64,000 nucleotides of DNA from Lingula anatina (Eukaryota; Animalia; Brachiopoda), in NCBI GenBank assembly GCA_051362555.1, contig CM120646.1, forward strand, positions 11,346,001-11,410,000, read 5' to 3'. Under the pieces are notes generated by a model. That model ran no database searches. It was not told the origin of the DNA and saw nothing but the letters and a program-made list of their open reading frames with translations. Position 1 is the first letter of the stretch, and each line of letters begins with the position of its first letter. This document shows, piece by piece, positions 9,501-32,200 of this stretch. The position numbers were made by a program, and so were the translations under genes.

Positions 9501-11989
9501 CGTCGAACCTGTAAATGTGTCAAAAGAAACTCCAAGGCTTTAACTAGATTCAAATCATACTTTGTCTAAATGAATTGACTATATTGAAGAGACAAGAAAG
9601 TTTCAAAGTATATTTGTTAGTCCAAATGGTAATTTTTGAACGTCTTAAATGATTTTGGTGATGCATATTCGAAAGTAAGTAGAGATTATTAACTAAATAA
9701 AATAGGGATACATTCAACCCTATGTACATGTAATATTTCGGACTGGCGGATAGGATAGAAACGCTGATCAATGGTATACATATACACTGTATCTATTAAA
9801 TCATATTGAATGTTGGAAGCACTTCATTTGTAAGAGTTTATATGGACGTGACAATGGCCCCACGTTCAAGTGGTATCTAGGCCAAAATGCCAATCCCTAT
9901 CACCCTCTTTTTGCAATTGGGAATTGTAATAAAATTTAAATGCCTACCTGTGTCGAAAGTGTGGTGGTGTTTTTAACAAAATGCACATATTTATGCTAAT
10001 TAATTAAAAAACACTATTACTTACATCACGTCTTCGGCGTCTGTTTGTCGGAGTATTTTGCCTTGGCAGGTGAACCGCTAAAAACAAACGATACGTATTC
10101 ATGTGATCTGTTTAATACCAGACGTAGTTTTCAGGAGTGTCATTTTGTACGACTAAGGGAAGGATGGTGATTTAATTTGATACATTATCTTCGATTTCCA
10201 AAAAAGTAGCATCTACATGTATGGTCTCCTCTTGACATTAGAATTTTGAGTAGCTGAATCATAGTTCGAAGCCGTACCAAATGGCACCAATCGCCTTCAA
10301 AAATTCCCAAAATTTTCGGTGCCCTTCACCAGGTCCGGACCTCACGCCGGGGCTTTGGGGGTACGGTCGGTTTCGCATCTGCGACCTGTCATTCCCCAAA
10401 ACCGGACCCCTTCAAATAACCCTGGATCCGCACCTGGATGTACACGTATATGCTGGACGCCGGTCATTTTTTTAGTGAGGTATGGGCGCATTTGATTTAA
10501 TATAAATGATCGGAATAATTTAACCCGCTTGATTTTATCAGATCAATAGTAACACTAATTTCCTCAATTCATTTTTTTCCATTTTTTCTGTCTACCTTTT
10601 TACACAACTTATTAAACGGGTTCATATCTTGTTTTCTTCACAAAAGACATGGATTAACGTGCATTATACTATAAGGTTTATATAAACAGATGAGAGGAGA
10701 CTTAAATTAGATAAGAGAAAAATAGGAAGCATACTTGTACCTCTAAAGGCCACTTTCCTTCGGTTGTATACGATGACTACAATGATAAGAAATCCCAGGA
10801 AAAGAGCAGCAGCCAACAGCAATATGGGCCAAAATGTAAAATATCCAAATTTTTCTTGGCTTTTTGGAACTATTCTGGTGGAATTAACTGCATAAAAAGG
10901 TTAAAATAAACAGATGAGAGGATATTTAAATAAGATAAGAGAAAAAAATAAGAATAATGTCTGTATATACTTAAGTACTTACAGTATCGTCTTCACTTTA
11001 AACACATATTGTCAAACGTTTGTACACAAATACTGTTTGGGTTGCGTTTTATACTATGTCTATAGACGTTCCACAATAAACTATACAAAAGCCAAAATCC
11101 GTTTCCTTAAAATACAAGTTGATCGTTTTGTTGGTCATATACCTATCACCCGAACAGTCTGATATTCCTCTGAGGTGGCAGACACTCCTACGCCAATGAG
11201 TTTAACAGAGCATGTGTAGTTGCCTCCGTCCCAGTAGCTGGCATTATATATTCGTATCAGACAGTTTATGGTGAATAGATAGTTTGGGTTCAAAGTATAT
11301 GTCACTGAAATGTTTCTTCCGATAAACTCATTCATAGGTTTAGCTATTTTCATTCCAGCTAACAGTAACATGTAGATGGGTCGGATATCTGTACTGTTCA
11401 GCGGGTTAACTTTCTTCCAGATGACAGTAAACCCAATAGAAAGCGCCATGGAAAAATTGCACCAAATTGAAAACGGATCGCCTTCGTCTATCATTTGCAA
11501 AGAGGGTGCATTTTCTGGCACTAATACTGAAATGAAAATGATGTGATGAAATGACAGTTTATGGTGATTAGATGATGTGCTTCTACCCCCACCCCCAACC
11601 CAACATACCCTCCCTTACCAACCAACGTACGTACAAAGACGCAACTACTCTCACGCACATATACTCGTAAACTCACAAAAACGCCCATACTTTATGTCAT
11701 TCAATTCTTAACCACATAGAATATTTACAGAAATCCAATTTTTGTGTATCAGATTTTGCTACAGCATATTCCATTCCATGTGGAGTCTAACAAGAGCACA
11801 GGAATGAGATTGGTGAATATCACCAATGCAAAATAATGTTCACTCAAAGAGGTGCAGCACACTAAAAACATTATAGAATTGATCATATATACGAATCAAT
11901 ATATACCTACCTTCCATAATTCCACAGGCAGGGGTTATCAATATGATGACCCCTAAAATTAATATGGAAGTTCTCATGTGGAACGCCAT
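6497..11989 (-). CDS. Gene A: receptor tyrosine kinase with one V-type Ig domain and an HQD catalytic loop (RET/FGFR/Tie-like kinase class)
   Basis: 12 phase-compatible GT-AG exons: 11911-11989 leader; 11143-11526 V-Ig ([12 protein letters not shown]); 10741-10887 TM ([26 protein letters not shown]); 10025-10077; 9395-9508; 9030-9189 ([12 protein letters not shown]); 8784-8894; 8429-8610; 8006-8128 ([11 protein letters not shown]); 7534-7645 ([14 protein letters not shown]); 7087-7186; 6497-6677 (CW..P..RPTF, stop). No stop or frameshift found. Confidence 0.9.
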
Positions 11990-12093
11990 CTTAGCCTGGC
12001 GCACATTTAATTTTGTATTACTATTTTTGCAATGATGAACATATTTTGGGCGTCGTGTTATTGCTTGTGAATTTGCACACGCCATCCATGCGC

Positions 12094-29220: not shown

Positions 29221-32200
29221 ATGGAGTTCCACGGGAGAACTACCATGTTAATTCTAGGGGTAATCATGTTGATAGTCACTGCCTGTGGGATTACGAAAGG
29301 TAGGTATATATTGATTCGTATATATGATAAATTCAAATATCAATAATTAGTATGTTTTTAGTGTGCTACACCTCTTTGAGTGAACATTTTTTTTGGCATG
29401 GGTGATATTCACTACAGGCCCTTAGCCAGGGGGGGTTCGGGGGGTTCGAAAGAACCCCCCTTTTTGCTGGAAAAAGGTCCACTCTGGGTAAAATTTGACC
29501 TAGGTACATGGGGATTATATGGTAAAAGGTCCACTTTTTCAGAAAAATAACCCCCCTTTTCAAATTGCTGGCTACGGGCCTGCACTAATCTCATTCCTTT
29601 GCTCTTATTAGACCCCGCATGGAAGGGAATATGCTGTAGCATAATCTGATACAGAATAATTGGATTTTAGTCATTAAAAATAACGCGGTGTTGTTGATGT
29701 ACAGCTATTACTTATATTAAATAGTTTCTTAACCTATTATTCCAAAGAAACACAGCAGGTAATGGAGTTTCTTTCGTATTTATTTTTTCTTTATGTAATA
29801 TTGTAATTGGGCGAGAATGTTATAATATAAAGAAGGATTAACGAGCGTAAACGGGTGAGAGTATTCTTCTGTGTGAACATACGTTGGTTGGTTGGGGCAT
29901 GTCGGGTTTGGAGGGGGGTGCAGGTGTTTTAGAAGCATATCATCTATTCACCATAAACTGTCATTTCATCACATCATTTTTATTTCAGAATTACTGTCAG
30001 AAAATGTACCCTCTTTGCAAACGATAGACGAAGGCGATTCGTTTTCAATTTGGTGCAATTTCTCCATACAGCATGCCGCTGGGTTTAATGTCAACTGGAC
30101 GAAAGTTAACCCGCCGAACGGTACAGATATCCGACCCATCTTCACGTTACAGAGGACTGGAGTCAATATAAATAAAACTTTCATTGACAGAAACATTTCA
30201 GTCACGGTGACATTACTAAAGAATATGTCATATCGTTGTCGGATACAAATATCTAATGCCAGTTACTGGGACGGGGGCAACTACACATGTTCTATTAAAC
30301 CCACTGGCCATGGCAGTCTTACCACCTCAAATAAATATCAGACTGTTCGAGTGATAGGTAAATGACAAAAAATTACGATCAAATTTTGCTTTTATATAGT
30401 TTATTTTGTAACGTTTATAAACGTAGTAAATAATGCAATCCAAACAATATTTGTGTACAAACGTTTGACAATATATATATATATATATGAATAAAAATTC
30501 GTTACGAATGAATCAAATATATTAATCATTTGTAGCAGGCTTAGCCAAGACCAAAACCACGTTGTTAAAGGTTTGTTTTCCTTTTATTCAACGCACCAAA
30601 TTTTATAAATTACGTTTTCCAGTTCCTCCTTCCTCAGTCAACATTTCTAAGAAGGCCGTCACTTCAACCAATATTATCTTAGAGTGTGTCACAAGCTACT
30701 TGTACCCAGGGGAACATCCCGCCCACGACATACTGTGGTACAGGAATAGGGAACAGTTCCACGTCACCAGTGCCAAAGACCTTAAATGCAACAGTTTAAA
30801 CTCAAGTCTATGCCAAAACTTTTCGGCCAAGATTAATGTGACAAAGGTTCCAAGTAAAATATATCAGTGTGCTTCATCAGACATCCGAAGCAAAGTAATT
30901 CCTTCTAAGCAAAGTGTTAATTCAAGTAAGTTGAGATTCGCTACTTCATGCACTCTAATATATTTGATATCCAGATGTAAGCAACCTAGTCGAGGTTTTC
31001 CGTCTTGTCATATGCTAGTACACGAGTAAAGATGTTGTTATTGAACATAAAAGTCATGCCTTTGTTAACTCGCCAAATCGTAAATGAAAATACATGTAAA
31101 TCTGCCAAGAACAAAATGGCTTTCACTCTGTCGGTCTTTTCTTTTTATGCAGTTAATTCCAGAGGCATTCCAGAACCAACCAAGTTGATCAGAATAGTTC
31201 CAAAAAGCCAAGGAAACTCTGGGTATATTTTTTTTTGGTCCATACTGCTGTGCGTTGTTGCTCTTTTCCTGGGACTTTTTATCATTATAATGATCGTATA
31301 CAACCGAAGGAGAAAGGCCTCTAGAGGTACAGACATTCTTCTTATTTTTTTCTCTTATCTAATTTAAATCTCCTCTGATTTGTTTATTTTAACCTTATAG
31401 TATAATGCACACTTTTGCACGTCTTTTGACAAGATATGGGTCCGCTTATTAAGCAGAAAGACAGAACGATTGTAAAAAAGGTAGAAAGGAAAAATGGAAA
31501 AATTAAATTGAAGAAATTTATGTAACTGTTTAATAATTAATTTTATAACGAATTAAATGCCTTATTTTAAATCATATACACCCATGCTCACAAAAAGAAT
31601 TGACAAAGGACTAGCATACGCATAGGTGCATAAGTCAAATTTATTCACCATCCATTCTTAAAGGGATAACAACTGCTCATTTTAGCCACAAAATTAATTT
31701 TCCTGGAGTAAACGACAATTTCCCCATACTTACTAATGGTTAATGAATCTATTCCAACATTCAAAGTTATATTTTTTTCTAAAAAGTTTGGTTTTTATAA
31801 TATCCTCTCAACAGATTATTACAAAGAGTAAAAAATGAAAGTCGTAAAAATGATCCTCCACGTCTGGTGTTGGACAGATCACAGATCACAGATACATTTT
31901 ATTTGTTTATTTATAGCGGTACATACCTCAAGGCAAAACACTAGGACTAACCGCCGCCGAAGACGTGATGTAAGTATAAGTGTTTCTGGCATGTCTGATG
32001 TTAAGAAATTCTCGAATATTTTACGCATATCGCAGACATATGCTATACTACGTACTCTCACGTGAATAACTCGAAAGAAAAGCACATACCAATAGAACGC
32101 AAGCACACGTTAATCTGTGTCCGAAGCAGAAAACTGGTCTTCAATCTCATAATTGTATGGCTCTTTTGGGCTTGAACTTTCGGTTTTTTTCAGCACGCTT

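Follow-up and report, generated by a model that had tools for sequence, protein, structure and literature searches.

Receptor genes and their tails

We analysed a 64-kb window of the brachiopod Lingula anatina (contig CM120646.1 of assembly GCA_051362555.1), which contains no N, and paralogues and donor tracts were sought at the DNA level within this window. It carries four genes (A, B, C, and D), each of which splices into an open frame with GT-AG sites and, in D, one GC donor. A, B, and C have homologous V-type immunoglobulin (V-Ig) exons that differ strongly in four short patches. Gene A (6497..11989, minus strand; 12 exons, 581 amino acids) encodes a signal peptide, the V-Ig domain, a transmembrane (TM) segment, a juxtamembrane region, and tyrosine kinase 1. 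It has no second Ig exon, and its first eight exons were predicted identically by RefSeq. Gene B (14426..20297, minus strand; 13 exons, 686 amino acids) has a signal peptide, V-Ig, a second Ig-like domain, TM, a juxtamembrane region, and a copy of kinase 2. Gene C (29221..32439, plus strand; 6 exons, 366 amino acids) shares the ectodomain plan of B, with signal peptide, V-Ig, and second Ig-like domain, and continues into TM and a short tail whose last exon has 41 codons. The second Ig-like exon had no Pfam match, and its name rests on the pattern of cysteines and tryptophan. Gene D (22796..28443, minus strand; 530 amino acids) encodes a signal peptide, a V-Ig domain of a different family, TM, and kinase 2.

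In A, B, and C, one phase-0 intron, at the same place in each gene, links the juxtamembrane exon that they share to three different tails. They are kinase 1 in A, the kinase 2 copy in B, and in C a tail with an immunoreceptor tyrosine-based inhibitory motif (ITIM) and an immunoreceptor tyrosine-based switch motif (ITSM). The ITIM consensus is S/I/V/L-x-Y-x-x-I/V/L and the ITSM consensus is T-x-Y-x-x-V/I, and C carries LIYADL (32341..32358, plus strand) and TEYVQI (32410..32427, plus strand), with their tyrosines 23 residues apart. By the motifs of its tail, C is a predicted ITIM/ITSM inhibitory receptor. D is head-to-head with C, and their starts are 780 bases apart (28443-29221), which suggests a common promoter for the ITIM receptor and an intact V-Ig kinase.

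The catalytic loop of kinase 1 in A reads HQD (8117..8119, minus strand), which retains the aspartate, while the RefSeq relatives P0012, P0013, and P0015 read HRD. In B, the lysine of VAVK is replaced by asparagine (16959..16961, minus strand) and the kinase is predicted to be inactive. Kinase 2 of D has all active-kinase motifs intact (GxGxxG, the VAVK lysine, HRD, and DFG). The C-terminal 353 amino acids of B are 96.6% identical to D, and the tail intron of B (17491..17782, minus strand) is a chimera: its first 116 bases are 88% like the tail intron of C and its last 44 bases are 86% like intron 4 of D, with about 130 bases between the two parts and the frame kept. Therefore, B took the kinase of D, and its earlier tail was probably C-like. 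In A, the last 105 coding bases including the stop are tandemly duplicated with a period of 122 (6372-6598), and the TM exon has a 27-base in-frame deletion.

Variable patches and the predicted fold

The V-Ig exons lie at 11526-11143 in A and 19691-19302 in B (both minus strand) and at 29989-30357 in C (plus strand), each in an open spliced frame, and identity of the encoded proteins to C is about 64%. V-set features are present, including the cysteine of strand B, the tryptophan of strand C, D-x-G-x-Y-x-C in strand F, and the C' and C'' strands. Pfam placed C above the V-set cut-off (26.7 bits) and B below it and did not list A, and an ESM search matched V-set at 0.97. In A, B, and C the whole V domain including strand G is one exon; on this ground a rearranging antigen receptor, with split V-(D)-J segments and somatic joining, was rejected.

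The earlier note on this DNA had described four strongly differing patches with quoted motifs, and all of them are present as written. In A (minus strand) these are the BC patch MALSI (11435..11449), similar in position to complementarity-determining region 1 (CDR1), the CDR2-like C'-C'' patch (11342..11365), the D-E patch (11273..11305), which has indels and was excluded from the codon tests, and the CDR3-like FG patch (11177..11206). The BC, C'C'', DE, and FG patches lie in turn at 19614-19600, 19530-19507, 19470-19432, and 19365-19336 in B (minus strand), and at 30066-30080, 30150-30173, 30201-30230, and 30294-30323 in C (plus strand). In the three alignable patches 36-45% of bases differ, compared with 8-11% across the rest of the V exon. 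Between A and B, the eight codons of the C'-C'' patch contain seven single-base changes, every one a replacement. Replacement changes are clustered: the three best windows of 6 columns hold 31 of the 64, whereas 5000 permutations gave a mean of 22.9 (p = 0.0004).

An AlphaFold model of C, made from the three-row alignment, has a V-set fold with a mean predicted local distance difference test score (pLDDT) of 69.5 and strands at residues 17-26, 30-38, 46-55, 60-63, 68-75, 79-86, 95-104, and 108-120. Residues 58-65 have pLDDT below 50, and thus the short C'' strand is uncertain. The best PDB fold matches of the model were T-cell receptor (TCR) V domains and PD-1 (TM-score 0.6-0.7). In the standard V topology, the BC, C'C'', DE, and FG loops are at one end of the domain, where CDR1, CDR2, hypervariable region 4 (HV4), and CDR3 lie. 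The patches sit at these four loops of the predicted fold, so the mapping that the earlier note had suggested places the variable sites on predicted tip loops.

We defined the tip as the BC, C'C'', DE, and FG loops of the model with two residues on either side. Variable columns make up 17 of 22 at the tip and 26 of 87 elsewhere (p = 7e-5), and columns that differ in all three proteins make up 10 of 22 and 3 of 87, respectively. The earlier description of the frameworks as nearly invariant was too strong, given these 26 variable columns and a ratio of replacement to silent rates (ω) of 0.7-0.9 there. Four N-glycan sequons are common to A, B, and C, and all are outside the patches. Strand D of B contains an additional cysteine (19464-19462, minus strand), one base from the tyrosine of A. 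By its register in the model of C, this cysteine would face a conserved extra cysteine in strand E, and a new disulphide is possible. A single-sequence fold of B had a pLDDT of 32.8.

The only close database protein was L. anatina XP_013398663.1, which matches the first 410 amino acids of A at 98.3%. The two differ at 7 of 410 residues and at 1 of 127 in the V domain, and this single V difference is an I to T change in the BC patch, at one of the sites that the codon models called selected. We take XP_013398663.1 as probably an allele of A, although it could be a very recent paralogue. Since the probable allele differs at one V residue, V diversity appears to lie between paralogues rather than alleles; this statement is based on one pair and is compatible with divergent haplotypes. 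Protein searches for family members gave one match among 78 candidates of 213-2000 amino acids and none among 34 of 66-224 amino acids. A 50%-identity library gave 11 matches, of which only P0001 was strong, and the other ten (563-5295 amino acids) matched weakly and in part, over several stretches. For B and C, the databases searched yielded no protein.

Kinase 1 is 77-98% identical to Lingula RefSeq kinases named 'FGFR' or 'Cad96Ca-like' (XP_013398663.1, XP_023932337.1, and XP_013382122.1). These names are automatic, and there is one V domain only. Several close copies of kinase 1 are on other Lingula scaffolds (RefSeq P0012, P0013, and P0015-P0017). P0012 has the juxtamembrane exon of A, read in a different frame. 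P0015 has a different, unrelated-looking Ig-like fragment before TM and the same kinase type, which hints at more shuffling between ectodomains and kinases.

Selection and history of the V exon

Codon tests were run on the three paralogue sequences after 19-20 of 129 columns had been dropped (the DE patch and 3-4 columns by a second indel). With 110 columns, twice the log-likelihood difference (2ΔlnL) was 18.3 for M2a against M1a and 18.3 for M8 against M8a, and about 22% of sites had ω near 7. Of nine sites with a posterior above 0.8, BC and FG hold three each, C'C'' holds two, and the last adjoins an indel. When the indel-adjoining column was removed (109 columns), 2ΔlnL of M2a against M1a was 14.6, a value reached in 0 of 145 simulations under the M1a null (maximum 6.4). 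The value was 9.6 with double and triple base changes allowed, 9.7 with site-rate variation, and 8.6 with both (p = 0.008-0.013). In a partition model, ω was 4.6 for the tip, 0.68 for the opposite loops, and 0.92 for the rest of V. When the tip rate was left free it was estimated at 1.05, with a tip ω of 4.4 (p = 0.011), and thus no general hot spot of mutation lies at the tip. Silent changes are alike per codon (5 in 23 in the patches and 13 in 86 in the rest), while replacement changes number 29 plus five three-state sites in the patches and 25 in the rest. About 27% of V sites have ω near 0, and ω is 0.25 between the kinases of B and D. The TM exon gave an M2a 2ΔlnL of 5.25 with unstable estimates, and this result was not used. 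These sequence-based tests support positive selection on the BC, C'C'', and FG tip loops. The earlier note had proposed to judge its claim by dN/dS on paralogues with a limit of 1, and the tip values of 4.4-4.6 lie above it. Its claim of diversifying selection on the ligand-binding face holds as far as site and partition models and the predicted fold place selection at one end of the domain; that ligand binds at this tip end is our inference.

The earlier note had also argued that adjacent introns of A and B are more alike than the patches. This is strongly so for intron 1, upstream of the V exon, where 24 of 379 bases differ (6.3%), but in the first 170 bases of intron 2, downstream, 42 of 158 aligned bases differ (27%). 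The two introns have different genealogies. A tract at 11530..17534 (minus strand) is a recent duplicate of about 19700-26000, with 6-8% base difference (2.6% in exons and 7.5% in introns), and it comprises D kinase exons, intergenic DNA, the promoter, the signal-peptide exon, and intron 1. Intron 1 of A and B is thus part of a recent 6-kb duplicate, which also brought the kinase of D. A and B differ by 6-7.5% in the upstream region and intron 1, and by 24-30% in intron 2 and the TM and juxtamembrane exons. Changes specific to the A, B, and C lineages number 7:18:90 upstream and 12:9:42 in intron 1, whereas silent V sites give 6:6:6, intron 2 gives 14:14:9, and the TM exon gives 14:14:8. Therefore, the V exon belongs to the older, star-like history of the 3' part, and the intron argument was confounded because the genealogy switches at the start of the V exon. 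Intron 1 was accordingly rejected as a neutral baseline. The patches of A and B, with 27 of 69 bases different (39%), still exceed the 27% of intron 2, at p = 0.016 only, and exceed a 17% baseline at p = 1e-5. There was no sign of exon-restricted conversion between C and A or B.

The DE patch has indels in every pairing of A, B, and C, and all indels seen in exons keep the frame. A 21-base block at the end of the D-E patch and the start of strand E in A (11260..11280, minus strand) is identical to a block near the end of intron 1 of C (29942-29962). Intron 1 of A, intron 1 of B, and the exon of B have near-identical copies, while the exon of C retains the flanks only. In 30 trials with shuffled exons, the longest shared blocks were 12-16 bases. 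The DE patch thus came at least in part from indels and local copying. We prefer intron-to-exon copying in the A/B line by template switching because the intron copy stands in all three genes; alternatively, the copy may be older, with a later loss of 15 bases in C. Within the window, no donors of at least 13 bases were found for the BC or FG patches, and two donor matches of 13-14 bases for C'C'' are at chance level. Lingula has deaminases like activation-induced deaminase (AID) (PMC5956068, in the part of it drawn on here). WRC/GYW-type changes are not raised in the patches (3 of 34, compared with 3 of 38 in the rest of the V exon and 11 of 115 upstream), and AID-type hypermutation was therefore rejected.

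These introns have other features as well. Intron 2 of A contains a 69-base copy (10965-10897, minus strand; 90-93%) of the start of the intron after the TM exon, at the site of the lost second Ig exon. Intron 1 of C has an insertion of about 170 bases (29412-29583) that is absent from A and B; its G-rich and C-rich ends match, and it may be a small mobile element. Farther along the window, a second Ig-like receptor family unrelated to A, B, and C lies at 42190-56700 (plus strand), and parts of it look rearranged or broken. It has V-like exons at about 43087-43473 and 48814-49189, a V-like fragment at 42340-42460, a C-like exon at 53977-54276, and a 5'-truncated C-like exon near 43630-43860. 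Its TM exons lie near 44040-44220 and 54450-54630, and one of its tail exons contains an in-frame stop near 55995. A Mutator-like transposase is encoded in two open frames at 57099-59647 (plus strand; Pfam PF20700, E = 7e-52).

A candidate paired receptor set

A, B, and C are paralogous germline genes for V-Ig membrane receptors. Their predicted membrane-distal loops show positive selection, and we consider it probable that they form a small set of paired activating and inhibitory receptors. They are best read as a paired set under ligand- or pathogen-driven selection. The gene anatomy, the three tails at one phase-0 intron, and the loop-restricted excess of replacements are observed; ligand, cell type, and activity are inferred. 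The tip loops would bind a variable non-self or cell-surface ligand, and a changing ligand, or a pathogen exploiting the inhibitory member, would drive the loops apart. C would dampen signalling through an ITIM and ITSM tail that recruits an SH2-domain phosphatase, and A would signal via its own tyrosine kinase. B, with a kinase predicted to be dead, is a probable decoy or modulator and would compete with or modulate the others. Tandem duplication, the swapping of tails, point substitution, and local templated indels, all in the germline, would give rise to new members.

Several points weigh against this interpretation. The sample of three sequences is small, the tip partition was taken from the model after the alignment had already been seen, and recombination in the locus can bias codon tests. 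A plain table of silent and replacement changes gave p = 0.064, the A/B pair alone was not significant (M2a against M1a, p = 0.10), and the whole V exon has a Nei-Gojobori dN/dS of 0.8-0.9. The signal peptide, second Ig, and TM exons have ω of 0.9-1.2, and thus constraint is weak across the entire ectodomain. The lost Ig exon and HQD in A and the lost catalytic lysine in B would also be expected of decaying duplicates. Because the tips differ at most positions (17 of 22 columns), a single ligand common to A, B, and C is improbable, while classic paired receptors retain similar binding surfaces (PMC5112662, in the part drawn on here).

One alternative is relaxed constraint, in which young duplicates drift to pseudogenes and the loops merely tolerate change. 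The ω near 1 in the signal peptide, second Ig, and TM exons, the K-to-N change in B, the R-to-Q change and exon loss in A, and the broken copies of the second Ig family nearby would fit such decay. However, neutrality limits ω to 1, the tip has 4.4-4.6, M2a beats M1a in four model variants, all exon indels are in frame, and about 27% of V sites have ω near 0, so we regard this explanation as unlikely. It is highly improbable that the patches come from a mutational process instead of selection, such as conversion from unseen donors, templated insertion, or a deaminase. Copying already explains part of the DE patch, where the 21-base exon-intron block exceeds the 12-16 bases of the shuffles, and the 69-base copy within intron 2 of A and the AID-like deaminases of Lingula (PMC5956068) point the same way. 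However, the silent rate of the tip is not raised, BC and FG have no donors of at least 13 bases in the window, the C'C'' matches are at chance level, and WRC/GYW-type changes are not enriched in the patches.

Self- or allo-recognition, or gamete or cell adhesion, by isoform-specific (homophilic) binding is a doubtful alternative to pathogen sensing. IgSF (immunoglobulin superfamily) allorecognition proteins with ITIM or ITAM (immunoreceptor tyrosine-based activation motif) tails are described in Botryllus and Hydractinia (PMC12582321, in part), the sponge receptor tyrosine kinase (RTK) and SAML have common tandem Ig ectodomains (PMC11926128, in part), and the ligand cannot be named from sequence. 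However, known systems rest on high allelic polymorphism, and A and its probable allele have 99% identity in V; moreover, Alr2 uses a side face, according to the part of PMC8282982 drawn on here. A misassembly, in which A and B are two haplotypes placed in tandem as deeply diverged alleles and the kinase fusion of B is an artefact, is very unlikely. The duplicated tract differs by just 2.6% in exons and 7.5% in introns, and the databases searched yielded no B or C protein. However, the window has no N, the B junction lies within a single intron, where about 130 bases separate the C-like from the D-like part, and keeps the frame, and the A-like RefSeq protein is 98% identical to A.

Among vertebrate paired receptors, SIRP uses its tip loops. 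CEACAM1/CEACAM3, Siglec-5/14, and SIRP alpha/beta resemble A, B, and C in having related V-Ig ectodomains on opposing tails, an ITIM/ITSM member, and V diversification, and Xenopus paired CEACAMs have opposite gene orientation, as C is opposite to A and B (PMC5112662, as far as the source was available). Selection on CEACAMs is on the CC'C''FG face (PMC5112662), unlike the tip loops selected here. In A, B, and C, as in a paired family, a single cluster combines related ectodomains with a predicted inhibitory tail and with non-inhibitory ones. A and B have tyrosine kinase domains and uncharged TM cores, and so they lack the ITAM or charged-TM adaptor arrangement; the non-inhibitory members carry their own tyrosine kinase instead of an ITAM as in vertebrate paired receptors. 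By analogy, A, B, and C would work like a paired IgSF receptor family but with intrinsic kinases in place of ITAM and adaptor.

An ITIM occurs in sponge SAML. The word ITIM is absent from the main text of PMC11926128, which describes Geodia cydonium RTK and SAML/SAMS with tandem V and C-type Ig ectodomains with and without a tyrosine kinase, like the A/B/C locus. In the sponge RTK, polymorphism is even across the loops and strands of the two domains (PMC11926128, in part), unlike the patches here. The precedents named in the earlier note, amphioxus VCBPs and Hydractinia Alr genes, fit poorly, since their variable sites are elsewhere on the fold and their diversity is allelic polymorphism, while that of A, B, and C appears to lie between paralogues. 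VCBPs share with A, B, and C V domains encoded in the germline, hypervariable stretches within them, and a mosaic cluster rich in indels, but they are secreted, have two V domains along with one chitin-binding domain, show allelic polymorphism, and have hypervariable regions displaced from Ig/TCR V positions (PMC2632668, in the part available). VCBP membership was rejected because A, B, and C have a single V with TM. Hydractinia Alr1/Alr2 and Botryllus FF/FcoR are also invertebrate IgSF membrane proteins that are encoded in clusters, show positive selection, and have ITIM-type tails (PMC8282982 and PMC12582321, both in part). The selected sites of Alr2 are allelic and on the C/C' side face (PMC8282982), and since those of A, B, and C are at the tip loops, Alr membership was rejected. 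Botryllus FcoR use ITIM/hemITAM and the available part of PMC12582321 mentions no kinase, unlike A and B. No description of this receptor family was found in a literature search of mostly open-access papers without supplements, and a prior listing is possible. The Lingula immune gene set of Gerdol and colleagues from 2018 may already include these genes.

Our broader proposal is more tentative. The locus may represent a paired immune receptor system of lophotrochozoans, with an antibody-like V tip of four loops that is swapped at one intron between an ITIM and ITSM tail and intrinsic tyrosine kinases. Positive selection and copying out of its own intron would diversify the tip, a kinase would replace the vertebrate ITAM/Syk arm, and haplotypes would differ in member number and tail. 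Diversification at CDR positions is usually tied to vertebrate antigen receptors, and the invertebrate precedents compared here vary elsewhere on the fold. The locus preserves steps of receptor birth, namely a tail swap at one intron, exon loss, and intron-to-exon copying, and its three small cloneable ectodomains offer a means to ask what invertebrate V domains bind. Expression of these genes would mean that tip-loop diversification and paired activating and inhibitory signalling arose convergently in a brachiopod, where a kinase built into the receptor serves as activating arm.

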